This document shows positions 1,355 to 17,606 of a stretch of DNA of 35,975 bases, piece after piece. Below the pieces are notes generated by a model that was given only the letters and a program-made list of their open reading frames with translations, did not search any database and was not told the origin of the DNA. Both the position numbers and the translations under genes were made by a program. How positions within the stretch are numbered: position 1 is the stretch's first letter; every line of letters begins with the position of its first letter. Origin of the DNA: Chthoniobacterales bacterium (lineage in GTDB: Bacteria > Verrucomicrobiota > Verrucomicrobiia > Chthoniobacterales > JACTMZ01); NCBI GenBank assembly GCA_017853515.1, contig JAFMJK010000002.1:1-35975 (forward strand). The letters run 5' to 3'.

Positions 1355-1394
1355 TATCAAACGCCCATGTTGGGCTCACGAATGACGATCGGCG

Positions 1395-1460: not shown

Positions 1461-1523
1461 TTAAGAGCTAAAGCCCACAATCTTTCGGGTTCGGTATTCT
1501 GCCGATCTCACCGATAGAAAAAT

Positions 1524-1550: not shown

Positions 1551-1567
1551 GTTAAAAATTCCGCCTC

Positions 1568-2359: not shown

Positions 2360-2455
2360 AGAGCGGACGCGCGGGGACCGGCTGCACCGTCGAAATACTT
2401 CGCATCCGCGCATTGACGCGATGGACGAATCCTTGTGCAATTCGCGCCGCCGACC

Positions 2456-3439
2456 ATGGACTGGGGACTCGCCATCGCCAATGTGCTCAATCCCGCCGCG
2501 CTCTTCTTCGCGCTGGGTTTCGCCGCCGTATTGTTCAAGACGGACCTGGAAATCCCCGCCCCGCTCCCGAAGCTTTTCTCGCTCTATCTCATCATCGCCA
2601 TCGGCTACACCGGCGGGACCAAACTCGCGGCGTCCGGCCTGAGCGGCACCGTGCTGCTTTACATCGCGGCGGCCGTATTCATGGCGTTGCTCGTGCCGGT
2701 CGCCGTCTTCTTCGCCCTGCGGAGACTCCTCTCCGTCTACGACGCCGCCGCCATGGCGGCGACATACGGTTCGATCAGCATCGTCACCTTCATCGTCGGC
2801 ACCGAGTTCCTCGACCGCAACGCACAGACTTACGGCGGCTACATGGTGGCCATCATGTCGCTCATGGAATCGCCCGCCATCGTCGCCGGCATTTTCCTTG
2901 TCCGCATGTTCGCCCCGCGCCGCACCCTCGCCGCGCCCAAGACCAACGCCGCTTCGCTCCTGCGCGAGTCGTTCCTCAACGCCTCGGTTTTCCTCCTTCT
3001 TGGAAGTTTGCTCATCGGCTGGGTCACCGGCCCGGCGCACGGCAAATCCCTCGAGACCTTCATGTCCGGGCTCTTCAAAGGCATGGTCATCTTCTTCCTC
3101 CTGGACACCGGCATGCATGCGGGGCGTCTCATCGGCATTTTCAAAAAAACCGGCGCACCGCTGGTGATCTTCGGGCTTGTCGCCCCGCTGGCCGGCGCCG
3201 CCCTCGGCCTCCTCGTGGCCAAGGGGATCGGCATGGCGCCCGGCGACGCGCTGCTCTTTGTCATCCTCTGCGCCAGCGCCAGCTACATCGTCGCCCCCGC
3301 CGCCATGCGACACGCCGTTCCCGAGTCGAATCCGGGACTGGTCGAACTCCTCTCCCTGGGCGTCACCTTCCCCTTCAACATCACCCTTGGCATCCCGCTC
3401 TACTGGATGGCCATCCGCTGGGTGTGGGGAGTGGACTGA
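2456..3439 (+). CDS. SbtA-family (sodium-dependent bicarbonate transport family) permease
   Basis: Polytopic membrane protein of 327 aa. Blocks LNPAALFFALGFAAVLFKTDLEIP...IIAIGYTGGTKL and DAAAMAATYGSISIVTF...LMESPAIVAGI resemble cyanobacterial SbtA. The ATG at 2456 is preferred to the GTG at 2435. No PII-like sbtB follows. Confidence 0.7.
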   Translation: MDWGLAIANVLNPAALFFALGFAAVLFKTDLEIPAPLPKLFSLYLIIAIGYTGGTKLAASGLSGTVLLYIAAAVFMALLVPVAVFFALRRLLSVYDAAAMAATYGSISIVTFIVGTEFLDRNAQTYGGYMVAIMSLMESPAIVAGIFLVRMFAPRRTLAAPKTNAASLLRESFLNASVFLLLGSLLIGWVTGPAHGKSLETFMSGLFKGMVIFFLLDTGMHAGRLIGIFKKTGAPLVIFGLVAPLAGAALGLLVAKGIGMAPGDALLFVILCASASYIVAPAAMRHAVPESNPGLVELLSLGVTFPFNITLGIPLYWMAIRWVWGVD

Positions 3440-3460
3440 GTCGCGGAACCTGGCCCCGCC

Positions 3461-4189
3461 TCAAAGCGCGAAGTCCGCGTCGGTCAAGCGGACATCGTGG
3501 CGGATGTTCGAACCGTCGATTTCGGTGGTGGCACCATCCGGCCGGGTTACGGTCATGCCCGCCGGTATGTTGCGCCCCGCGTCGTCCTTGGCCACTTGGG
3601 TCGTGGTAATGGTGCGGAGAAGTTGGCCCGAGACATCGTATTTTTCCACGCGCATGACAACGCGTTTGTCCGGGTCGATCCAGCTCCGCACTTTGCCGTG
3701 CGGCGAGTTGCCCGCGGGTCGCGATTCGAGAATGACGCAGTCCGCACGTCCAACGGATTCCTTTCCGGCCAATTCCTGCTTCGGCCAGAGGAAGAAATTC
3801 TCGATCACATCGGCGTAAGCGAGCCCGGTGCCGAACATGCCGCCGCTCCATTCCCCGCGGCCGATCCCGGAGCGCTCCCCCGCGGCGGAAATTTTCTCCC
3901 CGCGCGGCCATCCGCCTTTGCTCTGCGAAAGGACAACTTTCTCGCCCTTGCGTTGCTGAGGCCAGAGAACTTCGTAAACCGTCCGCGCGTTTCCGCCCGA
4001 GCGGAGTGATTTGATCTGCACCTGCAAGACTTGCCCGTCCGGTGCCTTCATTCGGACACGAGCCGAGGACTCGCCGTCCTCGACCAATGAGGCCATTTGT
4101 GACGCCAGCTGGCCGGCGTTCATACCCGGGTCCCCGGCGCGAAGGCTCGCCGCGGTCAGCAGAACGATCAGGAGGGGGAAAAGTTTCAT
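3461..4189 (-). CDS. Secreted LolA-like (outer-membrane lipoprotein-sorting family) protein
   Basis: This is the C-terminal 242 codons of the 614-aa tracked ORF, starting at ATG (complement of 4187-4189). The signal peptide MKLFPLLIVLLTAASLRAG has no Cys, so the protein is predicted to be soluble in the periplasm. The beta-rich body with RVVMRVEKYDVSGQLLRTITT resembles LolA_like family members that sit next to FtsX-type ABC transporters. Confidence 0.6.
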   Translation of the reverse strand: MKLFPLLIVLLTAASLRAGDPGMNAGQLASQMASLVEDGESSARVRMKAPDGQVLQVQIKSLRSGGNARTVYEVLWPQQRKGEKVVLSQSKGGWPRGEKISAAGERSGIGRGEWSGGMFGTGLAYADVIENFFLWPKQELAGKESVGRADCVILESRPAGNSPHGKVRSWIDPDKRVVMRVEKYDVSGQLLRTITTTQVAKDDAGRNIPAGMTVTRPDGATTEIDGSNIRHDVRLTDADFAL

Positions 4190-4221
4190 GCGCCCAACAT
4201 CCCTCGACGCGAACACCAGGG

Positions 4222-5337
4222 TCAACCCTGCAAGGCAGTGCTCGGCGAGAGGCGCGAGCTGCGCCATGCCGGATAAAGTCCGCTGACAATGCCGACCGCC
4301 ACCGCGATAAGCACGGCTTGGAGAGCCAAAGTCCAGCCGAGATCGGGCTCGAGAAATCCGCGCACGAAGGGCGTTTGCTCGAGAATGGCCAAGGTTACCG
4401 CGCCGAGCACCACCCCGACCACGCCGCCGAGAAATCCCATGACCGCGGATTCGCACAAAATAAGCGACATGATGCGCGCGCGGGACCAGCCGAGCGCGAG
4501 CAGGACGCCGATCTCGTGTTTGCGCTCGAACACGCTCATCAACATGGTGTTCATCACGCCGAGAACGCCGACGACCAGCGCGAGCAGGGAAGTGCTCCAG
4601 CTCATGGCTTGCGCCATGCGGAATCCCTGGCTGGTGCCGACCACCTCGCCCGCCTGGACGGCACGCAATCCCGGGTGCCTCGCCTCGATGTCGCGGCACA
4701 GCGATTCGATACCTTCGGGGGGAAGTCCGTCGGTCACGCGGATATTGATGAAGTTGGCGCGCCCTTCGTAGCCGGAGGCCGCCTGGAATCTGGGCAGGGC
4801 CATGTTGATCGCCCCGTTTTCCAGCACGGATTTGCCATCGACGATGCCGACCACGTCGAACTCCAGCGCTTCGACCTGCAATTTGTCGCCGGTCTTTTTG
4901 CCCAGCACCTCGGCGGCCAGCTTGCCGAGCACGACGGCGTTTTCCCGGGCGTCGCGCGGCATGCGCCCATCCACCACCTGCAGTTGTTCCCAGGTGAAAG
5001 ATTCCCACTCGCGCCCGTAGACGACCATCATGGGCGCGTCCTCCACACTGAGCATCTGCATGAGGGTGGCGTTCGCTTCCCCCACCCCGGGCATGGATGC
5101 GATCTCTTCGCGCACCGACTCCTCGAAGGCCTTGGGCATGATGCCGCCCTGCATGTTGCTCACCACGACATCGATTCCCACGGTGTCGAGCTGGTCCACC
5201 ACGCTTTTTTCGTAACCCGAGGCCATCCCGACGAGCGCCACCACGGCGGCGATGCCGATGGCGATGCCCAGGACGGTAAGGCCGGTCCGCACGGGACGGC
5301 GCCACAACCCGCGGAAGATGACCTGGAGAAAATTCAT
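4222..5337 (-). CDS. ABC transporter permease, MacB/FtsX type (N-terminal TM, large periplasmic domain, C-terminal FtsX 3-TM bundle)
   Basis: MNFLQVIFRGLWRRPVRTGLTVLGIAIGIAAVVALV is the typical MacB/LolCE/DevC N-terminus. The C-terminal FtsX region is ...RKHEIGVLLALGWSRARIMSLILCESAVMGFLGG.... Start ATG is at the complement of 5335-5337, 4 nt after the upstream stop. Confidence 0.85.
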   Translation of the reverse strand: MNFLQVIFRGLWRRPVRTGLTVLGIAIGIAAVVALVGMASGYEKSVVDQLDTVGIDVVVSNMQGGIMPKAFEESVREEIASMPGVGEANATLMQMLSVEDAPMMVVYGREWESFTWEQLQVVDGRMPRDARENAVVLGKLAAEVLGKKTGDKLQVEALEFDVVGIVDGKSVLENGAINMALPRFQAASGYEGRANFINIRVTDGLPPEGIESLCRDIEARHPGLRAVQAGEVVGTSQGFRMAQAMSWSTSLLALVVGVLGVMNTMLMSVFERKHEIGVLLALGWSRARIMSLILCESAVMGFLGGVVGVVLGAVTLAILEQTPFVRGFLEPDLGWTLALQAVLIAVAVGIVSGLYPAWRSSRLSPSTALQG

Positions 5338-5341
5338 GGAG

Positions 5342-6034
5342 TCAGCTTGCGGAGACGATTTGTCCGTCCTTGATGCGGACAATGCGCGTGCCGTGGCGCG
5401 CCAGTTCCTGGTCGTGGGTCACCATGACAAGGGTGACCCGGTGCTCTTCGCGCAAACGCAGGAGGATATCCATGACATGCGCGGAGTTTTTGCTGTCGAG
5501 ATTGCCGGTCGGTTCGTCGGCCAAGAGGATGGCCGGGCGGTTGGCCAGGCTCCGGGCGATGGCCGCGCGCTGGCGTTCTCCGCCGGACAGCTTCACCGGG
5601 AGATGATCGAGACGGTGGCCGAGCCCGACAGCCTCGAGCAGTTCGACGGCGCGGGCCCGCCGCTCGCGCGGCGAACCGGGCAGCCCGAACATGGGCATCT
5701 GCACGTTTTCCTCCACCGTGAAATTGGGAAGGAGATGGAAGGATTGGAAGATGAACCCGATCTCCCGCGCGCGGTAAGCCGCGGGGTCGCCGATCCCGGA
5801 CAAATCGCGGCCGCGGAAATGCAATTTCCCCGACGAGGGCCGGTCGAGCAAGCCGAGCATGTTGAGCAAGGTCGTCTTGCCGCAGCCGCTCGGACCCACG
5901 ATGGAAACGAATTCGCCTTGCCCGATGGTCAAATCGACCCCGCGCAACGCGGCGACGCGGCCGTCGTCGTATTCTTTGGTCAGACCCGCCGCCTCGTAGA
6001 CGATCTCGCCGGACGGAACTGCGGGCGCGGACAT
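5342..6034 (-). CDS. ABC transporter ATP-binding protein (MacB/LolD-like)
   Basis: Walker A GPSGCGKTT, signature LSGGERQRAAIARSL, Walker B ILLADEPTGNLD and the H-loop VTLVMVTHD are all present. The start at MSAPAV (6034) avoids overlap with the desaturase stop at 6043-6045. Confidence 0.9.
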   Translation of the reverse strand: MSAPAVPSGEIVYEAAGLTKEYDDGRVAALRGVDLTIGQGEFVSIVGPSGCGKTTLLNMLGLLDRPSSGKLHFRGRDLSGIGDPAAYRAREIGFIFQSFHLLPNFTVEENVQMPMFGLPGSPRERRARAVELLEAVGLGHRLDHLPVKLSGGERQRAAIARSLANRPAILLADEPTGNLDSKNSAHVMDILLRLREEHRVTLVMVTHDQELARHGTRIVRIKDGQIVSAS

Positions 6035-6042
6035 GGGCGGGA

Positions 6043-7008
6043 CTATTCCGCGGTGGCCCACTGCGCGCCGACGCGGGGATCGTGCAGGCGCTTGATCAAA
6101 TCAGCGAAGGCGGAGCGGTAATTCGGGAAGGGCGCGGTGTCGCCGCCGTCCTTCGGCTCGATCAGAGCGACATGCTCGACCAACTCGTCGCAGGGAATGG
6201 AACTCTTGGCGTGGTGCACGCCGTGGAGCGGCTGATGGAGCAAACTCAGCGCGACAAAGCGACCGGGGGTCGTTTCCACGATGATGCTACGGGTGGCGCT
6301 GCGCGCGCTGTTGCCGCTCAGTCCGACGTGCTCGATGTATTTGCGCCAGCTCTGCATGTTGCCGGCGATGAAAGCCGGGATGAAGTAAAGGACGAGGAAC
6401 CAGTTCCAGACGTTGAACCAAGCGACGAGGGCAAGTGCGGTGGTCCAGAGCAGGATCATGCCTGCGGTTTCGATCCAGATCCGTTTGCGCACCGTCTTGT
6501 TCGTCACGGGCGACGGATTTTCGAGGAAGACGCGCCAGAAAAGATACGGCGTGTAGAAAAAACCGAAATTGAGTTCGAGGAACGCGGCCGCGCGACGCCA
6601 CCAGAGCGGCTGTTGCGGATCGACGAAGGGCCAAAGCTCGAGATCTTTGACCGTGGCGAGATTGACGTGGTGCTTCTGGTGAAGGGCGCGGTAGAGCGTG
6701 AAAGGCGTGAGGCTGATCATGCCGACCAGCTGGCCGTCGAATTCGTTGAGCCATTTCCATTGGCGAAGGTTCCCGTGCGCCGCCTCGTGGTAGGCGATGA
6801 GCATGGCGTGCATGAAGTGGCTCGAGACGAGCATCAGCGGGACAATGAGCCACAGGAAGGCCGTGTGCCCGGAGACATATTTGTACATGCACCAGGCGAG
6901 CAGGGCGGCGCTGCCATAGGTGCCGACCATCACCCAAGTGAAAGATGTGCGGCACGGCCATGGTTCCTCGTGCGAGGCAAGGGCCGGGCTTTTTGCGGTC
7001 ATGTGCAT
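6043..7008 (-). CDS. Membrane fatty-acid desaturase family protein
   Basis: This is the last 321 codons of the 575-aa tracked ORF. Three histidine boxes are present: HEAAH (6775-6789), HQKHH (6667-6681) and HGVHH (6211-6225). There are several hydrophobic spans. The start is MHMTAK (7008 or 7002). Confidence 0.8.
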   Translation of the reverse strand: MHMTAKSPALASHEEPWPCRTSFTWVMVGTYGSAALLAWCMYKYVSGHTAFLWLIVPLMLVSSHFMHAMLIAYHEAAHGNLRQWKWLNEFDGQLVGMISLTPFTLYRALHQKHHVNLATVKDLELWPFVDPQQPLWWRRAAAFLELNFGFFYTPYLFWRVFLENPSPVTNKTVRKRIWIETAGMILLWTTALALVAWFNVWNWFLVLYFIPAFIAGNMQSWRKYIEHVGLSGNSARSATRSIIVETTPGRFVALSLLHQPLHGVHHAKSSIPCDELVEHVALIEPKDGGDTAPFPNYRSAFADLIKRLHDPRVGAQWATAE

Positions 7009-7036
7009 CGGAGCAGACTGGTCGAAACGGGACTTC

Positions 7037-8377
7037 TCATCCGGCCCCGGCCAGAACCTCGCGGAAAAGGGCGTCCAATTGCCGGACATCCGATTCCTCC
7101 ACGACGCTTTCACGGCGGAGCCAGACAATTTCCATTTGTCCGGTATCGCCGGTGATTTCGCAAGCCAAGTCGAAGCGCGATGTCCCGCTGGAAAGGTTGC
7201 GGAATGCGGCGGAAATACCCGGAACCGTGATGTCCGGGAACGGGTGATTCTGCACGGCGAAGCGGATGTCGTAGACGGCGTGGCGGCGCCGCGCAGCGCC
7301 GGCCTCCTCCACGGCGCGAACCAGCTCCGCGAAAGGCATGGCCCGGGCGAAATCCTCGAGCGTTTCCTCGTGGACCAGCGGGGCGAGATCAGAGAGCCCG
7401 AGGGACGGATCGATGCGGCAGCGCAGCGGAACGACTTCGGAGAAATAACCGATCGTCTCGCGGACGGAGGGTTTGGCCCGTCCCGCCACGGGGGTTCCCA
7501 GCACCACGTCGCTCTTGCCCTTCCAGCGATGCAAGGCGAGGCGGAACGCGGCGGACAGAGCGGTGAAGGGCGTGGTCCCCGCCTTTCGCGCCAGCGTGCG
7601 CACGGATTCCGCCGTGGCCGCCGGGATCTGCGTCTCCCACCGCCGCAAAGGCTCGCCCGCGACGGGATGCGCGGCATCGAAAAAAAGTTCCGCGTCCCGC
7701 AACCGCGAACGCCATCGCTCCGCGCGGACGGCCAACTCCTTTTCGGTCCATTGCGCGCGCTCCGCCGCACCCCACTGGCTGTAGGTCATGGGCGGCGGCG
7801 ACAACGTTTCGCTCAAGCCCTGCAAACGCGTCATGTCTTTACCCGAACGGCGCCAAGCCGCGATGCAACCGGTCATGAAATCTTCGACAAATGTGGTCAG
7901 GGCCCATCCGTCGGCGACCGAGTGATGGATAACCATGCCGAGAAAGCAATGGTCGGGCCCATCGGGCACCATGATGAGACGATGGAGCGGTCCGGCCACC
8001 AGGTCGAAGGGCCGGGCGAAGAGCGGGGCCAGGGCCGCGACAGCCGCTTCCGCACCGGAAGCACCGGTCGGAAGCGCGATCTGTTCCAGCACGGGTTCCG
8101 CCGAGGCGCGGACCAGTTGCACGGGGCGCGTCTTGCCCGGCAGGATCGTGGTGCGCAGCGCCTCCTGGCGGGCGAGAACCATGCCCAGCGCTTCGCGGCA
8201 AAGTTCCGGCGTGAGCGGACCGCGGATGTCGAGCAGCGCGCAGATATTGTTCGAGGGATCCCCCGGCGGGACGGGCGCGGTTTCCCACAGCTCGCGCTGC
8301 GGAAAAGTGAGGGGCACCAGCCGCGCCTGGCCGCTGGCCAGCAACTCCTCCAAACGGGCGCGCGCGTTGCCTGCCAT
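7037..8377 (-). CDS. Free-standing NRPS-type condensation (C) domain protein
   Basis: HHSVADG (HHxxxDG catalytic motif) lies at 7907-7927. The N-terminal C1-like block is LVPLTFPQRELWE. Length is 446 aa with no A or T domain. The ATG at 8377 is 4 nt downstream of the PKS stop. Confidence 0.8.
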   Translation of the reverse strand: MAGNARARLEELLASGQARLVPLTFPQRELWETAPVPPGDPSNNICALLDIRGPLTPELCREALGMVLARQEALRTTILPGKTRPVQLVRASAEPVLEQIALPTGASGAEAAVAALAPLFARPFDLVAGPLHRLIMVPDGPDHCFLGMVIHHSVADGWALTTFVEDFMTGCIAAWRRSGKDMTRLQGLSETLSPPPMTYSQWGAAERAQWTEKELAVRAERWRSRLRDAELFFDAAHPVAGEPLRRWETQIPAATAESVRTLARKAGTTPFTALSAAFRLALHRWKGKSDVVLGTPVAGRAKPSVRETIGYFSEVVPLRCRIDPSLGLSDLAPLVHEETLEDFARAMPFAELVRAVEEAGAARRRHAVYDIRFAVQNHPFPDITVPGISAAFRNLSSGTSRFDLACEITGDTGQMEIVWLRRESVVEESDVRQLDALFREVLAGAG

Positions 8378-8381
8378 CCGC

Positions 8382-11300
8382 CTAGCCGGCCGCCGCGCCG
8401 TTGCGGGCGCCGGCGGTTTTTTCCGCCCCACCCGCGACGAGTCGATCGAGTTCCTCGTCCGCGATCTCTGCGAAGTCGATTTCGTCCGCGGAAACCGCTT
8501 CAACTTCCGCGGCAACCCGGGCGACGGGTGCGGGAACCGCGGCACCACCGCCGAGGTGGCCGGTGAGCAGCGCGGCTATCTGCCCGATGGTGCGCGCGCG
8601 CATCAAACTGGTCGGCGGAAGAGTGACACCGATCGAGCTCTCGATCAGGTTTTCGATCTCCACGCCCATGAGCGAATCGAGACCGAGGTCGGTCAGCGGT
8701 TGGTCGGGGCGCAGCGACTCGGGCTTGACGCGCAGGACGGAGCCGATGATTTCCTGCAACGCCTGCACCACGACAGCCTCACGATCGTCCGGGGCGGCAG
8801 CTTCGATGCGAGCGCGCCAGTCGGCCGTTTTTCCGGCGGCCTCTTCCATTTCCACGCCTGCGGCGAAGATGCGCTCGAGCAGAGGGTTTTCCTGCAACCC
8901 GCGGAACGACTGGCGCCACTTGGCCCAGTCGACGCGCAGCGCGGCCATCTGCGTGGCCGATGAGTCGAGAAAGGTTTCCAGCAGCGATGTGACCTCGTCG
9001 GGCGAGAGCGCTTCGGTGCCTTGGCGCGAGAGATACTCGGCCACTTTTTCGTTGCGGGCGACGTAGCCTTCGCCGCCGAGCACGCCCCAGTTGACCGCGA
9101 GTGCGGGAAGCCCGAGAGCACGCCGGTGGTGGGCCAGCGCATCGAGGAAAGCGTTGGCCGCCGCGTAATTCCCCTGCCCCGGGTTGCCGAAAATGCTCGA
9201 GGCGGACGAGAACATGACGAATGCGTCGAGCGGCAAAGACTTGGTCTGTTCGTGCAGCAACCAACCGCCGGTCGCCTTGGGTTCGAGCACCGCGCGGAAG
9301 CGTTCGGGGGTCAGCGAAGCGAGGAGCGCGTCGTCGATGACCATGGCAAGATGGAAGACACCTTTGAGCGGCCGGCCCGCGCCGCGGATCTGCGCGAAAA
9401 GTTTTTCCACGTCGACGGGTGAACCGATGTCGGCGGCCACCGCATCAACCTTCGCCCCGGCCGCCGCCATTTCCTCGATGAACTCCCGCGCGCCCGGTGC
9501 CGCGGCGCCCCGGCGGCCGGTGAGGAACAAATGGCGCGCACCGCGGTCGGCCAGCCAACGCGCGATAACTTTCCCGAAACCGCCGAAACCGCCGGTCACG
9601 AGATAGACCGCCTCGGGATCGACGGCGAATGGTGTGCGCAAGGGCTCGCCTTCGGCGGGAACAAACGGGACGGCCATGTTGAGGAGAACTTTGCCGGTGT
9701 GCTTGCCCGCCGCCATGAGGCGGAACGCCGCGTCCGCGCGGTTGGCCGGGAAGGAACGGTAAGGAAGCGGACCGAGCTCATCCTTGGCCAGAAGCTCCGC
9801 GATTTCGCCGAGCAATTCGCGGGTGAGATTCTCATCGCCGGCGAACACCGCGTCCATGGCCACGACATGGAACGAGGCATTCTTGCGAAGATGCCACATG
9901 GGCAATTTGGAATTCTGGTAGATGTCGCGCTTGCCGATCTCGATGAACCGTCCGAACTCGGCAAGGCAGGACAGCCCCATGGGGATGGCTTCCGCGGCCA
10001 ACGCGTTGATCACCACATCGACGCCGCGGCGCCCGGTCAACTCCATGACGCGCTCGGCAAAATCGCCGCGGCGCGAGTCGATGACATGCTTCACCCCGAG
10101 AGCGGAAAGGAAAGAGCGTTTCGCCGGGCTACCAGCCGAGGCGACGACCTCCGCGCCGAGATGACGCGCGATCTGGATGGCAGCCATGCCGACGCCGCCC
10201 GCGCCCGCATGGACGAGCACGGTTTCGCCCGCGCGCAGCCGCGCCACGTTTTTCAGCGCATGCCACGCGGTCATGAAAACCACGGGCATGGTGGCCGCTT
10301 CCTCGAAGGTGATTCCGGGAGGCAGAGGCAAAACATCCGCACCGCGCGCGAGCGTGTGGGTGGCCAATCCGAAAACGGCCAGACCGAAAACACGGTCGCC
10401 GGGTTTGACGTGGGTCACGCCTTGGCCGACCGCCACCACCTCGCCGCCCACCTCGTCGCCATACATGCGTGCGTCGGCCGTTTCCGCGGGATAAAGGCCG
10501 AGCGCCTTGAGCACGTCGCGGAAATTGAGGCCCGCGGCATGCACGCGAATGAGCACTTCACCGGGCCCGCAGGCGGGCATGGCGAAGGGGACGAAACGCA
10601 GGCTGTCGATGATACCGCGCTCGCGCGACTCGAGACGGAGCGGGAGGACCGGATCGAAAAGTTTGCGCGGATTTTCCAGACCGCGGGAAATGCGTTGGAC
10701 GTGGCGCGCCTCGCCGCGCAGCGCGACCTCGCGCTCGACATCGGCGCGCAGCAACTCGCGCCAGAGCAAGTCGTCGACATCGGCGGCGGGACCCGAAGGA
10801 AGATCGATGCAGCGGAAAGAAAGATTCGGGTGCTCGCTGAGGAGGACGCGGAACAATCCCGCACACGCGCCCTGCACCGGATCGGGCGGAGCGGCTTCGC
10901 GACCGACCGCATGGGCACCCCGCGTAACGACGTCGATCCGCGGACGCGCGCCGGGAGGCAAAGCGTCGAGAGCATGGGAGAGCCGCAGCATTTCAGACGT
11001 GGCATCGTTCAGCGCGCCGGCACCGGCGTGATCGCAAGACCAGAGAAAAACGATGCGCTCCGGTGGGCTGTCGGCAAAATGCGCGGCGGAGAGCCTCGCC
11101 CAGTCTTCGGTTCCGGTGGAAGAAAGCGCGATTTTTTCCTCCGTGGCGCGGTAGGAATCACCGCGCGTTACCAAGCGGCATTGCGCGCCGGACGAACGGA
11201 GGCGGGCGGCCAGTTTTTGTCCCGAACCCGCATCGTCGGCGAACACCATCCAGGAGTTCCCGGCCAAAACCACCGGCTCTTCCGCAGCCGGAGCCTGCGG

Positions 11301-14300
11301 GGCAAAGGATTTGCGCGCGAGCACACCCATCTGGCCCTCCTCCCCGTTGGCCCTGCGCATGCCGGACAGACCCGCTGTCTCGGCGAATCCTGTCTCGCGC
11401 AGCAATTCCTCCCAACGCGCGCGCGGCAAGAGAGGACCGTCGGCACGCAGGTCATGATCGGTGAAGTTCCACCATCCGCTCGTCACGCCAAAAACCGACT
11501 CGGTCCACAGGCGCGGCGAAGCCACATCCATGAAGGCAAGCGTTCCGCCCGGCGCAAGCAACCGGTGCAATTGGCCGAGGCAGGCGCGCAGATCGGCGGC
11601 GGCGTGAAGGACATTCGTGCCGATGATGAAATCGAAAGTCTCCGCGAAATATCCCTGCGCCTCGGCGTCGCGATCGAGATCGAAGACGCGGTATTCGACC
11701 TCGGGATGCGCCGCCAGCTTTTGCTGGGCCGGCGGGAAAAACGCGGTCGACGCATCGGTGAAAACATAGCAGTGCGTCCCCCTCTCGAGGATCGGCAGGA
11801 CGTGCGCGGCAAGTCCGCCGGTGCCCGCGCCAACCTCGAGGATGCGCAGAGGCCGGCCCTCCGGCAGCGCTGCTGCCGCTTTCTGCACGGCTGCGGCGAT
11901 CGCCGCCATCCAATGGCCCGAAAAAAGCCCGTCTCCGTAAAATTGCTCGAGCCAATCGGTGCCCGCACCGGCAAAAAGAACCTGCACCGCGTCTTTTTCC
12001 CCGCGCAAAATCGCGGGCAACTCGGCGCAGTTCGCCGCGCAGAGGTTCGCCTCCTGCGTGTGGCCCGGATAGCGCCCGATAAATTCGCGCAATCGCGACG
12101 GCGCCGAATCGGCGAGGAGAGCGAAGGCATCGCCGGGGCGCCACGTACCATCGGCAGCTTGGAGCGCGCCCCGCGCGGCCAATGCCGCGGTGAATCTTCC
12201 GAAAATCGGCCGCATGGCCGGAGCCACGCCCAGCGAATCCGCGCTGAAAACTTCGCCCGGCCGCACGCCCATGGCACGCAGCCCGGCGGCAATCTGCGCG
12301 GCGGCCAGGTCATCCTCCTCGCCAATCACCTTTTCAAGGCGGTCTTGTCCGCGCAGGCCGAGCACTGCGTTGAGCGCGCCGGTTGCCGCACCGTGCAACT
12401 CTCCCAAAGACACGGGCGGCAGCGCGACGGCAGCCTGTCCCGAAGACTGCCTTTCCCAATCGACATGATAGACGAGATCGCGACCCTCGCCGGTGGATGA
12501 TCCCGTGCGCCGGGCGGAACCGAGCGCCACGGCGCGGAATCCGTCGACCAGCACGCAGGGCCGACCTTCGGAATCGAAGATCTCGATGCGTCCTTCGGTG
12601 ATTTCCTCGTTGCAGTGAAGCACCGCGGCGCGCGTGCGCACTGCGGCGCCGGGGGGACGTAGAAAAAGTATCCGGGCGAATCGGACGGGAAGTTTCAGCT
12701 TCACACCCCGCTCCTCCATGTTGCGCGCGGCCGCGGAAAAAACATGGAGCGCCCCGTCGAGGATCACGGGGTGCAGCGCGTAATCACCGACGCGCTTGGC
12801 CGCTTTCTCCGAGAGCGAAACCTCACCGGCCGAGCGTCCGGCGCGCGCGAAAAGACGACGCGCCGCGCGAAACTCGGGACCGTAGGGCAGACCCCGCGCG
12901 CGCTTGTGCTCGTAGTTCTCCCCGACATCGACTTCATCCAATTCCGCGAAGGGATCGGGCCAACGCGATGACTCGAATTCCGACTCGACGCGCTCCGCAC
13001 GCAACGATCCGACGGCATGGAGGGACCACGCCGCGGAATTTTCCGGGCGGCTTTGGATGGTCAAAGAGCGTTCCTGGGGATCGTAGGAAAGTTCGAGCGC
13101 GGGCGATTCGGAGTTTTCGGAGATGATGAGGGGCTTGCGGATTTCGAAATCCTCGAGCACGAACGGGCGCCCCTCGAAAAGCTGCGTGCCCGCTTCGAGG
13201 GCCATCTCGATGAAACCGGCGGCGGGAAAAACGATGCGGTTGTCCACGCGGTGATCGCGCAGGTAAGCGAGATGGCGTTCATCCAACCGCGTGACCCACG
13301 TGGGAATGGCGCGCGGCAACCGCGATTCGAGCAACCCCTTGCCGCCTGGCGTCAGGCGGCTTTCCCGCATCTCGGGCGATTCGTGCCACCAACGGCTTTT
13401 GTTCCAAGGATAGGCCGGCAGCGCGAGCATGCGCCGTGACGGCGTCATCGCGGAGAAGTCGATCGCCACACCGAGACGGTGGAGTTCGAGCGCGGCCTCG
13501 ATGAGCGACTCCTGCTCGCGTTCGCGCCGGGCGGAAGCGACCGACGGCGCTTTGACCCCGAGGGCACCGAGGCATTCCTGCAGCGAGACGACCAAGGCGG
13601 GATGCGCACCGATCTCCAGCCAGATATCGACGCCGTGTTCTGTCATGGCCGCCACCGAATCGGCGAAGCGGACCGGTTGGCGGATGCCGCGGGCCCAGTA
13701 ACCCGCGGTGCATTGCGCACCATCGAAACGCGCGCCGGTCACCGTGCTGAAAAAGGGCAATGTCTCCCCGCGCGGACGCACATCGGCCAGCACGCGTTCC
13801 ATGGCATCGGCGGCGGGCTGCATCATGGCATGGTGGAAAGGATGATTGACGCGGACGAAGCGCGCGAAAACGCCGGCTGCCTCGAGTTCCGTCGCCATCG
13901 GTTCGAGTGAGGCGGGTTTTCCCGACAGCGTGAGAGAACGCGGGCCGTTGAAGGCGGAAATGGTCACACCGTCGCCGTGGCGATCGATGAGTTGCTGGGC
14001 TTCGTCCTGCGACAGGCCGACGGCCAGCATGCGTCCCTCCCCGCGGGCGCAATCCTGCATTTCGCGCGCGCGGATGACGACGACCTTGGCCGCTTCCTCC
14101 AAAGTGAGGATTCCCGCGGCCCAAGCGGCGGCGATTTCGCCCACGCTGTGACCGGTGACGGCGCACGGCTCGACACCCCATGACCGCCACAGGCGGGTCA
14201 GGCCGACCTGCATGGCGAAGATGGCGGGTTGTCCGATCTTGGTATGGTGCAGCTGCGAGTCCTCTTCCCCGCGGGAAAGCTCCTCGAGCAGGGAGAAGTC

Positions 14301-16070
14301 GGCGTGCGGCGCCATGGCCGCCGCGCATTCCTCGATCGCTTCGCGGAAAACCGGTTCGGCGCGCATCAGTTCGCGTCCCATACCCCACCACTGCGGACCC
14401 TGCCCGCTCATGATGAACCCGATGCGCGGGGGTTTTTCCGGCCGCGGCGTGAAAGAAACGCGCGAGGCGGCGCCGGTTTCGCCCGAGGCGTGAGAGCGCA
14501 ATTCGGCAATGACGGCATCCGTGTCGCGCGCGACCGCAGTCAGGCGGTAGGGATGATGGTTGCGCCGCGCGCCGAGCGTGTAGACGAGATCGGGAACGAG
14601 GGGGGAAGTTCCGTTGCCGTGCGCGTGCGCCTCGAGCCAATCGGCCAAGCGTGCGGCGGCGGCGCGCAATGATTCCTCGGAGCGCGCGGACAACACCACC
14701 GGCCATGCGCGGTCCGCCCCTGCAGCCACCTTCTCCGCGGCACGGGCGGGAGCAGACGAAAGGATGACATGGGCGTTGGCGCCGCCGAAACCGAAGGAGT
14801 TCACGCCGGCCAACCGCGGCTTGTCGCCGTCGGCGGGGAACGGCTCCGTCACGACCGGAACGCGCAGTTTGCGCTCGGCGAAATCGATGTGCGGGCTCGG
14901 TTCGCTGAAATGGATGCTCGGCGGGATCTGTCCGCGGGAAACAACCAGCGCGGCTTTGACGATGCCGGCGATGCCGGCCGCGGTTTCGAGGTGACCGAGG
15001 TTGGTCTTCACCGATCCGATGGGAAGCGGGGCATCGGACGGACGCTCTTCGCACAGCGCGCGCGACAGAGCATGGGCTTCGATCGGATCACCCACCGCGG
15101 TGCCGGTGCCGTGCGCCTCGACATAACCGATCTCGGAGGGATCGACGCCGGCGTCGGCGCACGCATCGCGCACGAGACGGGTTTGCGCCTCTTCGCCGGG
15201 GAGCATGATGCCATTGGTGTGGCCGTCTTGGTTGGCCGAAGTGCCGCGAATGACGGCGTAAACATGATCGCCATCGGCCAGCGCGCGGGCGAGCGGCTTG
15301 AGCAAAACCATTCCGGCCCCCTCGCCGCGCACAAAACCATTGGCTGCGGCGTCGAAGGCACGGCAACGTCCGTCGGGCGAGAGCATCGAGGCCTGGGAAA
15401 ACCCGATGAATCCGTCCGGCGCGATCATCACGGTGACGCCGCCGGCCAGCGCGGCGTCGCAACGTCCGGAACGCAGCTGTTCCACGGCCACGTGCACTGC
15501 GGTAAGCGCGGACGAACACGCCGTATCCATGGCGATGCTCGGGCCGGTCAGGTTGAAGCAGTAGGAAATGCGGTTGGCCGCGATGCTGTGGGCGTTGCCG
15601 GTCGGCGAATGCGCGCTGATGCCGTGGCGGTCGCCCGAGCCGCCTTGGATACCCTGGTAGTCGGTGTGCGAAATACCGGCGTAAACGCCGATGTTCGTGC
15701 CGCGCTCGAGATCCAGAATGATGCCGCCGTCCTCCATCGCTTCCCACGCCGTCTCGAGGAGCAGGCGCTGCTGCGGATCGATGTAAGGCGCCTCGCGCGG
15801 CGAGATGCCGAAAAATTGCGGATCGAACTGGTCGATCCCGTCGATGAACCCTCCCCACTTGGCAACGCTCTTGCCGGGGATGCCGGGCTCGGGATCATAA
15901 TAGCGATCGATCTTCCATCGGTCGGGCGGGATCTCGACCACCGCGTCTTTTCCCTCCAGGAGAAATTTCCAGAAGGTCTCGACGTCATTGAGGCCTCCGG
16001 GAAATCGTATGCCCATGCCGACGATGGCAATGTCGTCTCTGTGTTGCTGCGCGGGGTCGGTCTTCCTCAT
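8382..16070 (-). CDS. Type I polyketide synthase, single fully reducing module with C-methyltransferase: KS-AT-DH-CMeT-ER-KR-ACP, no TE
   Basis: A 2562-aa ORF with all hallmark motifs in order (see domain features). No thioesterase, reductase or loading domain is present. KS begins at residue ~12. Confidence 0.95.
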   Translation of the reverse strand: MRKTDPAQQHRDDIAIVGMGIRFPGGLNDVETFWKFLLEGKDAVVEIPPDRWKIDRYYDPEPGIPGKSVAKWGGFIDGIDQFDPQFFGISPREAPYIDPQQRLLLETAWEAMEDGGIILDLERGTNIGVYAGISHTDYQGIQGGSGDRHGISAHSPTGNAHSIAANRISYCFNLTGPSIAMDTACSSALTAVHVAVEQLRSGRCDAALAGGVTVMIAPDGFIGFSQASMLSPDGRCRAFDAAANGFVRGEGAGMVLLKPLARALADGDHVYAVIRGTSANQDGHTNGIMLPGEEAQTRLVRDACADAGVDPSEIGYVEAHGTGTAVGDPIEAHALSRALCEERPSDAPLPIGSVKTNLGHLETAAGIAGIVKAALVVSRGQIPPSIHFSEPSPHIDFAERKLRVPVVTEPFPADGDKPRLAGVNSFGFGGANAHVILSSAPARAAEKVAAGADRAWPVVLSARSEESLRAAAARLADWLEAHAHGNGTSPLVPDLVYTLGARRNHHPYRLTAVARDTDAVIAELRSHASGETGAASRVSFTPRPEKPPRIGFIMSGQGPQWWGMGRELMRAEPVFREAIEECAAAMAPHADFSLLEELSRGEEDSQLHHTKIGQPAIFAMQVGLTRLWRSWGVEPCAVTGHSVGEIAAAWAAGILTLEEAAKVVVIRAREMQDCARGEGRMLAVGLSQDEAQQLIDRHGDGVTISAFNGPRSLTLSGKPASLEPMATELEAAGVFARFVRVNHPFHHAMMQPAADAMERVLADVRPRGETLPFFSTVTGARFDGAQCTAGYWARGIRQPVRFADSVAAMTEHGVDIWLEIGAHPALVVSLQECLGALGVKAPSVASARREREQESLIEAALELHRLGVAIDFSAMTPSRRMLALPAYPWNKSRWWHESPEMRESRLTPGGKGLLESRLPRAIPTWVTRLDERHLAYLRDHRVDNRIVFPAAGFIEMALEAGTQLFEGRPFVLEDFEIRKPLIISENSESPALELSYDPQERSLTIQSRPENSAAWSLHAVGSLRAERVESEFESSRWPDPFAELDEVDVGENYEHKRARGLPYGPEFRAARRLFARAGRSAGEVSLSEKAAKRVGDYALHPVILDGALHVFSAAARNMEERGVKLKLPVRFARILFLRPPGAAVRTRAAVLHCNEEITEGRIEIFDSEGRPCVLVDGFRAVALGSARRTGSSTGEGRDLVYHVDWERQSSGQAAVALPPVSLGELHGAATGALNAVLGLRGQDRLEKVIGEEDDLAAAQIAAGLRAMGVRPGEVFSADSLGVAPAMRPIFGRFTAALAARGALQAADGTWRPGDAFALLADSAPSRLREFIGRYPGHTQEANLCAANCAELPAILRGEKDAVQVLFAGAGTDWLEQFYGDGLFSGHWMAAIAAAVQKAAAALPEGRPLRILEVGAGTGGLAAHVLPILERGTHCYVFTDASTAFFPPAQQKLAAHPEVEYRVFDLDRDAEAQGYFAETFDFIIGTNVLHAAADLRACLGQLHRLLAPGGTLAFMDVASPRLWTESVFGVTSGWWNFTDHDLRADGPLLPRARWEELLRETGFAETAGLSGMRRANGEEGQMGVLARKSFAPQAPAAEEPVVLAGNSWMVFADDAGSGQKLAARLRSSGAQCRLVTRGDSYRATEEKIALSSTGTEDWARLSAAHFADSPPERIVFLWSCDHAGAGALNDATSEMLRLSHALDALPPGARPRIDVVTRGAHAVGREAAPPDPVQGACAGLFRVLLSEHPNLSFRCIDLPSGPAADVDDLLWRELLRADVEREVALRGEARHVQRISRGLENPRKLFDPVLPLRLESRERGIIDSLRFVPFAMPACGPGEVLIRVHAAGLNFRDVLKALGLYPAETADARMYGDEVGGEVVAVGQGVTHVKPGDRVFGLAVFGLATHTLARGADVLPLPPGITFEEAATMPVVFMTAWHALKNVARLRAGETVLVHAGAGGVGMAAIQIARHLGAEVVASAGSPAKRSFLSALGVKHVIDSRRGDFAERVMELTGRRGVDVVINALAAEAIPMGLSCLAEFGRFIEIGKRDIYQNSKLPMWHLRKNASFHVVAMDAVFAGDENLTRELLGEIAELLAKDELGPLPYRSFPANRADAAFRLMAAGKHTGKVLLNMAVPFVPAEGEPLRTPFAVDPEAVYLVTGGFGGFGKVIARWLADRGARHLFLTGRRGAAAPGAREFIEEMAAAGAKVDAVAADIGSPVDVEKLFAQIRGAGRPLKGVFHLAMVIDDALLASLTPERFRAVLEPKATGGWLLHEQTKSLPLDAFVMFSSASSIFGNPGQGNYAAANAFLDALAHHRRALGLPALAVNWGVLGGEGYVARNEKVAEYLSRQGTEALSPDEVTSLLETFLDSSATQMAALRVDWAKWRQSFRGLQENPLLERIFAAGVEMEEAAGKTADWRARIEAAAPDDREAVVVQALQEIIGSVLRVKPESLRPDQPLTDLGLDSLMGVEIENLIESSIGVTLPPTSLMRARTIGQIAALLTGHLGGGAAVPAPVARVAAEVEAVSADEIDFAEIADEELDRLVAGGAEKTAGARNGAAAG
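8556..8783 (-). other. PKS acyl carrier protein (ACP) domain (approximate bounds)
   Basis: LGLDSLMGVE, with the phosphopantetheine Ser2466 codon at 8673-8675. Confidence 0.9.
9066..9614 (-). other. PKS ketoreductase (KR) catalytic subdomain (approximate bounds)
   Basis: YLVTGGFGGFG Rossmann motif (9573-9596). VIDD sits at the LDD-motif position. The catalytic Tyr lies in GNYAAANAFLD. Confidence 0.85.
9666..10643 (-). other. PKS enoylreductase (ER, MDR family) domain (approximate bounds)
   Basis: GEVLIRVHAAGLNFRDVL is present. The NADPH-binding motif LVHAGAGGVGMAAIQ lies at 10188-10211. Confidence 0.85.
11391..12083 (-). other. PKS-embedded SAM-dependent C-methyltransferase domain (approximate bounds)
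   Basis: Motif I ILEVGAGTGG lies at 11814-11843. Downstream blocks FDFIIGTNVLHA and LLAPGGTLAF are present. The domain is placed between DH and ER, as in highly reducing PKSs. Confidence 0.8.
12516..13358 (-). other. PKS dehydratase (DH) domain (approximate bounds)
   Basis: LRDHRVDNRIVFPAAG is an HxxxGxxxxP motif with N in the G position. A downstream HPVILDGALH block is also present. Confidence 0.7.
13521..14426 (-). other. PKS acyltransferase (AT) domain (approximate bounds)
   Basis: GHSVGE with the Ser642 codon at 14145-14147. The HPFH motif (13833-13844) occupies the HAFH/YASH specificity position and is closer to the malonyl-type HAFH. Confidence 0.85.
14757..16037 (-). other. PKS ketosynthase (KS) domain (approximate bounds)
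   Basis: DIAIVGMGIRFPGG. DTACSS with the active-site Cys185 codon at 15516-15518. EAHGTGT. NLGHLETAAG. Confidence 0.9.
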
Positions 16071-16171
16071 GGATCGGGCGAACTGGAAATCTAGGGAAAA
16101 AGACCGCCCCCCCTCCAGAGGAAAGAGTCCCTCTTGAGCGGAAGCGGAACCCGGTCTAGGCTGCCCGACCC

Positions 16172-16903
16172 ATGGGCAGACAGTGGTTATTGGCCAAACG
16201 CGAGGTCGCTTCGCTCCGCAAATCGCAGGCGACGGGTAAATTCATCCGCGAAATCACCATCGCGGCGCGCCACGGCGGGGCGGACCCGGCCACCAACTCG
16301 CGGCTGGCCGCGGCGCTGGAAAAAGCGCGCAAGGAAAGCGTGCCGAAGGACGCCATCGAACGGGCCATCGCCAAAGGCGCGGGTACGGGCGGCGACAAAA
16401 CATCGCTCGAGCACATCACTTTCGAAGGCTACGCGCCGCACAAGGTGCCGGTCATTGTCGAAACGTTCACCGACAACACCAACCGCACCACACCGGAGAT
16501 CCGCGTGCTCTTCAAAAAAGGCCAACTCGGCGCTTCAGGAAGCAACAAGTTCCTTTTCGACAATGTCGGCTTGGTCGAAGCGCACACCGCGAAGTCCGGC
16601 ACGGACCTCGAGGAAGCCGCCATCGAAGCGGGCGCGAACGAAGTCGAACCCCTCACCCACGAGCAGAACGACGACATCCCGAAAGAGGCGAGCGGCGCGC
16701 GGTTCATCACCGACCGCGCCAACACGCACGGAGTGTCGAAGTGGCTTTCGGAAAACGGATGGACCGTCGTGACGAGCGAGCTCGGCTTCGTGCCGAAGCA
16801 ATGTCCGGATCTCAGCGAGGAACAACGGGCGGAAGTCGGCGCATTCCTTCAGGCGCTCGACGATCACGACGACGTGCACCGCGTCTGGGCTGCGGTGAAG
16901 TAG
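16172..16903 (+). CDS. yebC: YebC/PmpR family DNA-binding regulator / translation-associated protein
   Basis: MGRQWLLAKREVASLRKSQATGKFIREITIAARHGGADPATNSRLAAALEKARKESVPKDAIERAI is the canonical YebC/TACO1 N-terminus. Length is 243 aa. Confidence 0.9.
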   Translation: MGRQWLLAKREVASLRKSQATGKFIREITIAARHGGADPATNSRLAAALEKARKESVPKDAIERAIAKGAGTGGDKTSLEHITFEGYAPHKVPVIVETFTDNTNRTTPEIRVLFKKGQLGASGSNKFLFDNVGLVEAHTAKSGTDLEEAAIEAGANEVEPLTHEQNDDIPKEASGARFITDRANTHGVSKWLSENGWTVVTSELGFVPKQCPDLSEEQRAEVGAFLQALDDHDDVHRVWAAVK

Positions 16904-17024: not shown

Positions 17025-17591
17025 TCACCACCGTCCACCGGCCGGCGCGAGACCGCGGGGAGTGCCGAGAATTTCGGCGAGGACGATCGCGTGGCGTTTG
17101 GAGGTGCGGTCGGAAAGCATGGCGCGCACGGACGAAGGCAGGGGTTTTGCCGTCGCGGTCGCTTTTTCTTTCGCGGCGAAAGCGGAGGCGAGCCGCGCCA
17201 TTTTCTCGTCCGGTCGCCGGATCGACGGCGGTTGCCAGCGCGGTTTCTCCGCGACGGGCGCCGACCTCGGGATCGGCGGAGGCGCCTCCTCGAGCGAGGC
17301 GAATTCCTCCTCTGCTTCGGGCGCGGAACGTTGCGCGACGGGCGGAGGAAGAATCGTTTCGGCGGGAAGACCGAGCGCTTCCATCAACTCCTTGAGCGGA
17401 TCTTGGGCGGGAGCGGATGCGCGGCGCGCGGCGGCCGGGCGCTGCGTTTTTTGCGTGTAGATGTTGCGCCCGGTCTCGCGCTTGGCCCCGCGCTCCAGTT
17501 TGGCCTGTTCGCGCTTTTCGGCGGCTCTTTGCATCACCCAGTTGATCAAGCTGATCAACCCGATGACGACGAGGAGGACTAATTGCTCCAT
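17025..17591 (-). CDS. Hypothetical single-pass membrane protein with a long Pro/Ala-rich disordered region
   Basis: 188-aa ORF starting 15 nt after the floA stop. N-terminal TM MEQLVLLVVIGLISLINWV. The middle is low-complexity. The C-terminal block is RHAIVLAEILGTPRGL. I recognise no family. Confidence 0.5.
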   Translation of the reverse strand: MEQLVLLVVIGLISLINWVMQRAAEKREQAKLERGAKRETGRNIYTQKTQRPAAARRASAPAQDPLKELMEALGLPAETILPPPVAQRSAPEAEEEFASLEEAPPPIPRSAPVAEKPRWQPPSIRRPDEKMARLASAFAAKEKATATAKPLPSSVRAMLSDRTSKRHAIVLAEILGTPRGLAPAGGRW

Positions 17592-17606
17592 GGACCGCGG
17601 AAAAAA

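Follow-up and report, generated by a model that had tools for sequence, protein, structure and literature searches.

We examined a 35,975-nucleotide (nt) stretch of DNA from a Chthoniobacterales bacterium of the phylum Verrucomicrobiota, metagenomic contig JAFMJK010000002.1, referred to below as the window. It contains a cassette of six genes (positions 3461-16070) that is inherited as a set and that joins a type I polyketide synthase (PKS), a free-standing condensation (C) protein, and a desaturase-family protein to an ATP-binding cassette (ABC) ATPase, an FtsX permease, and a secreted LolA-like protein. We refer to the ATPase and permease as the pump and to the LolA-like protein as the carrier. 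The genes, from first to last in the direction of transcription, and the non-coding region upstream of them are as follows.

8382-16070, minus strand: type I PKS, 2562 amino acids (aa), with ketosynthase (KS), acyltransferase (AT), dehydratase (DH), C-methyltransferase (CMeT), enoylreductase (ER), ketoreductase (KR), and acyl carrier protein (ACP) domains in the order KS-AT-DH-CMeT-ER-KR-ACP (Pfam)
7037-8377, minus strand: free-standing C protein of the nonribosomal peptide synthetase (NRPS) type, 446 aa (Pfam Condensation)
6043-7008, minus strand: membrane di-iron desaturase/hydroxylase family protein, 321 aa (Pfam FA_desaturase)
5342-6034, minus strand: ABC ATPase, LolD/MacB/DevA type, 230 aa (Pfam ABC_tran)
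4222-5337, minus strand: type VII (MacB/LolC-like) ABC permease, 371 aa (Pfam MacB_PCD and FtsX)
3461-4189, minus strand: secreted LolA-fold protein of the PF17131/LolA3 class, 242 aa (Pfam LolA_like)
16071-16171, no strand assigned: divergent intergenic region from the PKS start to yebC, presumed promoter region (by position)

The six open reading frames (ORFs) lie head to tail, and each begins with ATG and is free of internal stops. Because the window is ~65% GC and rich in long spurious ORFs, we relied on third-position GC, which picks out the six annotated frames as real genes. Counted from the PKS end, the intergenic gaps measure 4, 28, 8, 4, and 32 nt. An initial annotation, made from this DNA alone, had reported six minus-strand genes with this spacing, and both its coordinates and its gaps are reproduced exactly; its domain and motif calls are each matched by Pfam profile search for all six proteins. 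The operon-like packing it described also stands, as the gaps are tight and none of the five holds a terminator-like site or hairpin. Terminator-like sites do not exceed the number expected from shuffled sequence, and the promoter and terminator scan is informative only for the absence of a terminator in the gaps. Orthologous loci show a 4-nt overlap between the called ABC and FtsX genes, and at locus L002 the PKS and C genes overlap, both of which fit translational coupling. The region between the PKS and yebC genes is the presumed promoter since it is the sole non-coding stretch upstream of the cassette; the promoter scan finds no sigma-70 consensus there.

Homologs of the C protein share 43-92% identity and come nearly all from Verrucomicrobiota. 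Three contigs with precomputed gene calls carry the same six genes in the same order within wholly different flanks. To follow this linkage more broadly, we scanned one genome per GTDB species with the C-protein alignment, which confirmed 551 stretches, and examined the best 80 of them. Almost all of these 80 loci belong to Verrucomicrobiota: Chthoniobacterales, Udaeobacter, Terrimicrobiaceae, Verrucomicrobiaceae/Prosthecobacter/Brevifollis/Luteolibacter, Akkermansiaceae, and an Opitutus. Fifty loci have at least 5 kb downstream of the C gene, and the desaturase, ABC, FtsX, and LolA-like genes follow in order in 41 of them; only the LolA-like gene is missing in 4, and the desaturase gene alone is present in 4. 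The PKS lies upstream of the C gene in 57 of 60 loci. A reciprocal scan anchored on the LolA-like protein recovers all five upstream genes at 39 of 49 loci. The gene set thereby recurs in most of ~100 informative species-level loci, far beyond chance.

The linkage also survives rearrangement. At L162 (Verrucomicrobium sp. BvORR034, 1-12729) the order is PKS, C, desaturase, an intervening gene, LolA-like, ABC, and FtsX, and at L122 (Terrimicrobiaceae, 2256-10678) the LolA-like gene directly follows the PKS gene. In a Candidatus Udaeobacter sp. (L065, DATARG010000251.1, 2279-11326) the PKS and C protein form one 3016-aa ORF ending in ACP-C, a fusion of the Rosetta-stone type that could also be an assembly artefact. 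That the genes stay linked when the flanks change, when their order is rearranged, and when two of them fuse argues strongly that their six products work jointly. The link in function first proposed between the PKS and the transporter and LolA-like genes is therefore well supported: the loss of synteny in related genomes that would have undermined it was looked for, and linkage instead runs at ~80% in both directions. Distant C-domain loci at L083-L085 (Corallococcus, Myxococcaceae, Thermoanaerobaculia) lack the cassette.

Several variations on this organization were observed. Insertions of ~7 kb interrupt the cassette at L120 and L131 with linkage kept. The C, desaturase, ABC, and FtsX genes are present at L012 (Terrimicrobiaceae, 4202-10100), L010, and L029, where no PKS is detectable upstream of C within 10 kb (L012) or ~3 kb (L010 and L029); the upstream genes at L012 encode a 1041-aa protein with no Pfam match and a protein with a prepilin-type N-terminal methylation motif. 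Sequence similarity to the window can be mosaic, as noted for L007 and L008 relative to L004. The desaturase, ABC, FtsX, and LolA-like proteins of L008 are 89, 92, 91, and 67% identical to those of the window, with 65% for its PKS and 49% for its C protein, while the corresponding values for L004 are 80, 81, 83, and 57%, with 76% for both PKS and C. This pattern points to a recombination event between the C and desaturase genes or to highly unequal rates of change; within the cassette, the C protein evolves fastest.

Three further genes, all absent from the window, recur beside the cassette. A PGAP1-like alpha/beta hydrolase of ~530-548 aa occurs at L021 (12255-13850), L017 (12288-13895), L037, L001 (16098-17744), and L097 (13793-15433), and also at L004, L007, L008, L009, L045, L056, and L072. 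It lies between the desaturase and ABC genes at L017, L021, and L037, has a lipoprotein-like N-terminus at L017 and L021, and adjoins a LolA-like gene without a PKS nearby at L097; a role in remodelling the product in the periplasm is possible. The other two, found at L001, L004, L007, L008, L009, and other loci, encode a 351-aa cytoplasmic protein with a weak methyltransferase-like match (L001, 14987-16042, minus strand) and a 167-aa Chalcone_3 (PF16036) protein (L001, 17778-18281, minus strand).

The PKS is a single fully reducing module in which Pfam detects no loading domain and no thioesterase (TE). Profile matches cover ketoacyl-synt (8e-99), Acyl_transf_1 (2e-72), PKS_DH_N/PS-DH, Methyltransf_12 (5e-16), ADH_N/ADH_zinc_N, KR (3e-67), and PP-binding (4e-14), and the domains, all on the minus strand and identified by Pfam and, for all but the ER, by motifs, are placed as follows.

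14907-16037, minus strand: KS, aa 12-388, with Cys-His-His triad motifs DTACSSA, EAHGTGT, and KTNLGH
13470-14417, minus strand: AT, aa 552-867, with GHSVGE and HPFHH
12510-13331, minus strand: DH, aa 914-1187, with the HxxxGxxxxP-type motif HRVDNRIVFPAA
11382-11903, minus strand: CMeT, aa 1390-1563, with the S-adenosylmethionine (SAM) motif ILEVGAGTG and NVLHA
9681-10568, minus strand: ER, aa 1835-2130, from matches to ADH_N (2e-11), ADH_zinc_N (1e-23), and ADH_zinc_N_2 (6.6e-22)
9078-9611, minus strand: KR, aa 2154-2331, with GGFGGFG and YAAANA
8565-8765, minus strand: ACP, aa 2436-2502, with the phosphopantetheine attachment site LGLDSL

With KS, AT, DH, ER, KR, and ACP on one polypeptide and their motifs intact, the protein belongs to the type I fully reducing PKSs. 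Its catalytic motifs are kept in 37-49 of 49 orthologs, depending on the motif: LGLDSL is present in all 49, NV[LIVF]HA of the CMeT in 48, and the SAM motif, searched with a strict regular expression, in 37. Published AT signatures are HAFH for malonyl and GHSQGE/YASH for methylmalonyl substrates. The GHSVGE/HPFHH motifs of the AT more nearly resemble the malonyl signature, and if the domain is malonyl-like, any methyl branches should come from SAM via the in-line CMeT.

The best PDB match of the PKS is mycocerosic acid synthase (MAS, or Mas) from M. tuberculosis (9d2y, 1054 bits). The KS-AT region alone, however, scores about equally against CurL, DEBS, and Mas-like PKSs, so the whole-protein match reflects shared architecture and not a special affinity to Mas. 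Among NCBIfam models, PKS_plus_SDR and Pks2 match best, but both fall below cut-off (Pks2 at 1257.7 against 2400) and no equivalog is reached. Together with the AT motifs and the presence of a CMeT, the Pks2 score places the protein outside the mycocerosic acid synthase family proper.

The C protein matches Pfam Condensation (PF00668) at 2.4e-43 and 148.9 bits (cut-off 30.6) over model positions 3-431 of 456. It is predicted to be cytoplasmic, with no transmembrane segment, and its HHSVADG motif conforms to the HHxxxDG signature that is invariant across the family (alignment A1). A PDB profile search returns Txo2 first (5e-57), followed by DhbF, TycC, and the fuscachelin PCP-C didomain, in which PCP denotes a peptidyl carrier protein. 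The AlphaFold2 (AF2) model of the protein (pLDDT 83.5) aligns by Foldseek to Txo2 and the fuscachelin didomain with TM-scores of 0.77-0.80, and the list also includes the stand-alone proteins CmnI and SgcC5, the whole set spanning 0.74-0.80. The model and motif together identify a full-length, two-lobed fold and thus a complete, canonical NRPS-type C domain.

The initial annotation had drawn an analogy with PapA-type acyltransferases. The C protein shares with them the HHxxxDG motif and adjacency to a Mas-like PKS, but it has no PapA_C match in Pfam, where PF00668 is its only hit, and PapA5 is missing from its top 60 PDB sequence matches and its top 50 Foldseek matches. Pfam, PDB profiles, and Foldseek all point to NRPS C domains instead, and the PapA analogy describes a possible role, not family membership. 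A PCP-bound acceptor supplied by an adjacent module of adenylation (A) domain and PCP finds no counterpart, as no A domain, PCP, or TE is present in the cassette or in the variable flanks examined. Since no such partner is conserved nearby, the C protein most likely releases the chain from the ACP onto a nucleophile that is produced elsewhere. The stand-alone C domain Zmn19 off-loads an ACP-bound thioester onto a free amine (PMC5811116), and by analogy we propose that the C protein is the off-loading enzyme for the ACP of the PKS.

The third gene, which is the one most tightly linked to the PKS-C pair, encodes a protein that matches FA_desaturase (PF00487; 4.9e-31, 108.8 bits, cut-off 29.7). 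The three His boxes HEAAH, HQKHH, and HGVHH are kept in 62-63 of 63 orthologs and hydrophobic segments are present, which together with the Pfam match places it in the PF00487 superfamily. Finer assignment is less certain. The only NCBIfam match is a weak one to DesA (26.5 bits against a cut-off of 500), leaving the protein without an equivalog, and a PDB sequence search gives no matches. PF00487 members include hydroxylases, ketolases, and decarboxylases.

The ATPase matches ABC_tran at 9e-35. Its NCBIfam ranking runs from LolD through YbbA, MacB, DarD, and FtsE to DevA, all below cut-off, with LolD at 236.5 bits against 307.75 and DevA at 189 bits against 295.8. The permease, the sole permease gene of the cassette, matches MacB_PCD (4e-20) and FtsX (1e-18), and hydropathy predicts one transmembrane helix, a periplasmic domain of ~200 aa, and then helices two to four. 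It reaches 59.6 bits against the NCBIfam lolCE model, for which the cut-off is 362.45. A far better LolC/E candidate exists in a genome that carries the cassette: a LolC/E-like permease at L064 (14252-15556, minus strand) scores 324.5 bits against TIGR02212 and, oriented convergently to the cassette, occupies the usual place of the LolA-like gene. Its resemblance to the cassette permease is limited to a short stretch of 29% identity. Because of this candidate we regard the cassette pump as a dedicated paralog.

The carrier matches LolA_like (PF17131) at 2.8e-16 and 60.2 bits (cut-off 30) and has no NCBIfam match or equivalog. It bears a type I signal peptide (…SLRA|GD) with no lipobox; in an alignment of 35 sequences most have a type I signal peptide and 34 lack a lipobox. 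Foldseek searches with the AF2 model (pLDDT 90.8) return the structural-genomics proteins 4z48 (TM-score 0.80) and 3bk5 (0.79) and LolA3 of P. gingivalis (9tp6, 0.76). Scores to canonical LolA are ~0.4-0.45, and LolA, RseB, and LprG are remoter members of the same superfamily. A Pfam score above the gathering threshold, a half-barrel fold, and a Sec signal peptide thus assign the carrier to the group of PF17131 LolA_like, TP_0789-like, and LolA3 proteins, with a confidently modelled LolA-superfamily fold.

The export half therefore has the topology of a Lol system, with a type VII layout, no membrane-fusion protein (MFP) in the neighborhoods, and a soluble LolA-fold partner. The ‘Lol-like’ module of the initial annotation holds as an analogy in these respects but not as membership: LolD and lolCE are below cut-off, and the carrier hits PF17131 and is distant from canonical LolA by TM-score, which excludes the LolCDE-LolA equivalogs. 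A housekeeping Lol system is likewise rejected, given these scores and the better LolC/E paralog at L064. The comparison with DevCA that had been drawn is not matched by the transporter, as its DevA score is below cut-off, and a DevBCA-type exporter is further excluded by the absence of an MFP gene from the cassette and its neighborhoods.

In the window, housekeeping genes surround the cassette. Downstream lie genes for an SbtA-type transporter (2435-3439), ParA, and an amidase, which are convergent or unrelated housekeeping genes. Upstream and divergent is yebC (16172-16903, plus strand), beyond which are FloA/NfeD, adenosine deaminase, RuvX, a nucleotidyl transferase, adenine deaminase, DnaB, L9, and others. 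The window holds no A domain, PCP, thioesterase, fatty acyl-AMP ligase (FAAL), MFP, TolC, or LolB-like gene, so the cassette is self-contained. Rfam and tRNA scans of the window gave no matches.

Third-position GC also identifies several long ORFs as high-GC artefacts: a 614-aa ORF (3461-5305, minus strand) that extends the LolA-like frame across the FtsX gene, and two ORFs (17583-21851 and 9531-12500, both plus strand) that overlap real genes in another frame or strand. One of the latter two is a 1422-aa antisense ORF. The flotillin-like floA gene (17607-18626) and nfeD (18636-19133) lie ~1 kb from the cassette within 17025-19871 (minus strand), bracketed by ORFs without Pfam matches (17025-17591 and 19137-19871); the group resembles a membrane-microdomain operon, and we found no evidence tying it to the cassette. 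A 782-aa ORF at 20955-23303 (minus strand) matches Epimerase and DUF1731 in residues 499-779 only. Its ~490 N-terminal residues have no Pfam match, and third-position GC backs part of the frame; a start codon further in and a second gene are both possible.

We compared the cassette with characterized systems for making and exporting envelope lipids. In mycobacteria, pathways related to phthiocerol dimycocerosate (PDIM) use Mas/Pks2-5, PapA5/PapA1-3, DrrABC, MmpL7, and LppX. Like the cassette, they combine a single-module, fully reducing, TE-less PKS, which there makes methyl-branched acyl chains, with a separate condensation-fold off-loader and, for delivery to the envelope, with an ABC transporter and a lipid carrier of the LolA fold, and Mas/PapA5/DrrABC-MmpL7/LppX is the closest functional analog. 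The parts differ. Methyl groups in the cassette pathway would come through the in-line, SAM-dependent CMeT and a malonyl-type AT, whereas mycobacteria use methylmalonyl-CoA; the off-loader is of the NRPS type and not the PapA type; the pump is type VII and MacB-like as opposed to DrrABC; there is no FAAL, no MmpL-type transporter of the resistance-nodulation-division (RND) superfamily, and no lipoprotein anchor on the carrier; and the host is a diderm of another phylum.

For the export half, the closest mechanistic analog is LolCDE-LolA, with which the cassette shares a LolD-like ATPase, a four-helix permease with a MacB-type periplasmic domain, the lack of an MFP, and a soluble LolA-superfamily partner. 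It departs from that system in scoring below all Lol equivalog cut-offs, in having one permease gene and a carrier of the PF17131/LolA3 class, in its co-inheritance with a PKS, and in occurring alongside a separate, better LolC/E candidate. A trio of this composition has been predicted elsewhere. Borrelia BBJ26-28 comprises an ATPase, a predicted homodimeric MacB-like permease, and a LolA-like protein, for which export of a non-polar ligand has been put forward as a prediction only, and a role in exporting lipids or lipoproteins has been suggested for MacB-like plus LolA-like modules (PMC13078400). The carrier is of the same kind as PF17131/LolA3/TP_0789-like proteins, but none of the Borrelia- and P. 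gingivalis-type modules has a linked biosynthetic enzyme or a known cargo. The function of LolA3 is stated as unknown (PMC13103446, PMC11885536): its deletion in F. johnsoniae has no phenotype (PMC11885536), and the P. gingivalis protein bound LolB weakly (PMC13103446).

LolA-fold genes within polyketide-lipid loci have their nearest precedents in the flexirubin and aryl-polyene clusters (F. johnsoniae LolA2/LolB2; ApeL/ApeN with the RND exporter ApeM), whose LolA/LolB paralogs are proposed to carry lipid to the outer membrane (PMC11885536; bioRxiv 10.1101/2020.12.19.423268). Those loci use type II-like synthases, RND or other exporters, and a LolB-like lipoprotein, with the carrier role proposed only, while the cassette combines a type I PKS with a type VII ABC pump and lacks a LolB-like gene. 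In the heterocyst glycolipid system (HglE-type PKS with DevBCA-TolC), too, an envelope lipid made by a PKS leaves through an FtsX-family ABC transporter; the cassette, although its ATPase matches DevA below cut-off, lacks the DevB MFP, TolC, and a glycosyltransferase and has a LolA-fold carrier instead. In its biosynthetic half, the free C protein recalls Zmn19, VibH, SgcC5, and CmnI, which end a carrier-bound chain by amide or ester formation (PMC5811116), and the domain order KS-AT-DH-CMeT-ER-KR-ACP(-C) is that of fungal highly reducing PKSs, which the L065 fusion matches to the final C domain. Both of these comparisons differ from the cassette in that it is bacterial, has no NRPS partner, and is coupled to an envelope transporter. 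The initial annotation knew of no characterized cluster with this combination of genes, and our literature searches, which did not cover MIBiG, also found no paper describing the cassette or its product; one taxonomic paper lists an orphan type I PKS in an Opitutales isolate and says nothing more about it. We regard the cassette as an orphan variant of known PKS-lipid pathways with dedicated envelope export, one that lies outside the Mas, PapA, Lol, and Dev families.

On balance, the evidence favors a self-contained lipid biosynthesis and trafficking unit, typical of Verrucomicrobiota, that makes and delivers an envelope lipid. In such a pathway, the PKS would build a saturated, methyl-branched acyl chain on its ACP from malonyl units with SAM-dependent methylation, working iteratively or on a fatty-acyl primer. 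In the manner of Zmn19, VibH, or SgcC5, the C protein would transfer the chain to an acceptor that the cassette itself does not encode; this could be a free amine, an alcohol, or a membrane lipid head group, giving an amide- or ester-linked lipid. The desaturase-family enzyme would add a double bond or hydroxyl, acting on the chain while it is carrier-bound or on the product once it is embedded in the membrane. The ABC/FtsX complex would pull the lipid from the inner membrane by LolCDE-like mechanotransmission and pass it to the LolA-fold carrier, which would take it across to the outer membrane. More tentatively, Verrucomicrobiota may thus possess a dedicated Lol-like route for non-protein cargo, in which a type VII extractor and a PF17131/LolA3 carrier bring a methyl-branched lipid, a polyketide amide or ester, to the outer membrane.

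Several observations weigh against this pathway. About 20% of loci have no adjacent transporter or carrier, and at five loci in the LolA-anchored scan the carrier is present and the PKS absent. The cassette encodes neither a flippase nor a LolB-like protein or other outer-membrane receptor, and type VII ABC transporters known so far take their substrate from the periplasmic side. The C protein is most like elongation-type NRPS C domains, which normally take PCP-bound acceptors, and an A-PCP module or acceptor carrier may be encoded elsewhere in the genome. The desaturase-family reaction could instead be hydroxylation, ketolation, or decarboxylation. A lone, fully reducing PKS module without a loading domain or TE could plausibly work iteratively, but sequence alone cannot show this. 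Finally, we infer the product, the identity of its acceptor, its ester or amide nature, and its outer-membrane destination from gene content and analogy.

These points leave room for other explanations. The product could be a diffusible metabolite with bioactivity, for example an antibiotic, surfactant, or signal, that a MacB-type pump exports or protects against, with the LolA-fold protein as a periplasmic binding or immunity factor. MacB-family pumps do export antibiotics and peptides, the ATPase scores similarly against MacB, the darobactin exporter DarD, and a bacteriocin exporter family, and genome papers list PKS clusters of this phylum as orphan secondary-metabolite clusters. We nevertheless find this unlikely: neither the cassette nor its conserved neighborhood has an MFP or TolC-like gene, the partner protein has the fold of a lipid carrier, and the cassette is kept across several orders amid housekeeping genes, which is more typical of a core envelope trait. 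An envelope function unconnected to the PKS is harder still to defend. Were the ABC/FtsX/LolA-like trio a general system for lipoprotein sorting, or an FtsEX-like regulator of periplasmic hydrolases, that merely sits beside an unrelated PKS operon, then LolD as the best NCBIfam match of the ATPase, the five loci without a PKS, and the PGAP1-like periplasmic hydrolases that often adjoin the cassette would be readily understood. Against this stand the sub-threshold score of every Lol equivalog, the LolC/E candidate with 324.5 bits to the 59.6 of the cassette permease in a cassette-bearing genome, and a PKS linkage of ~80% in both directions that persists through different flanks and rearrangements, and we regard it as highly improbable.

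The chemistry could also be simpler than a conjugate. The PKS might extend a fatty-acyl primer by only one or a few methyl-branched units, with the C protein acting as a hydrolase or passing the chain to a standard lipid precursor, or the desaturase might act like UndB/AlkB to give an alkene or hydroxylated hydrocarbon; the chain would then serve ordinary membrane lipids or lipid A. A PKS without a loading domain in a cassette without a FAAL would suit such a scheme, as would the hydroxylases and decarboxylases of PF00487, a desaturase with only the weak DesA match and no PDB relative, and the existence of hydrolytic C domains. However, the HHxxxDG motif and the full acceptor-side lobe of the C protein are strictly conserved, and a dedicated extractor and carrier would be superfluous for a chain that enters bulk phospholipid. 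We judge this scheme distinctly unlikely.

Verrucomicrobiota are abundant in soil, freshwater, and guts, and their envelope lipids are poorly known. If the cassette does make an envelope lipid and deliver it to the outer membrane, the phylum would have a new class of outer-membrane lipid, and the LolA3/TP_0789-like family and the MacB-like plus LolA-like modules of spirochaetes and Bacteroidota would gain their first cargo and function; the cassette already offers a testable cargo hypothesis for LolA3/PF17131 and for these modules (PMC11885536, PMC13103446, PMC13078400). It would also be a Gram-negative counterpart of the mycobacterial Mas/PapA5/LppX logic assembled from different parts, and would offer a compact bacterial highly reducing PKS with an in-line CMeT and C-domain release in trans, useful for engineering branched lipids. 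For the organisms themselves, a phylum-wide cassette of PKS, extractor, and carrier predicts an undiscovered structural or protective lipid of the outer membrane.

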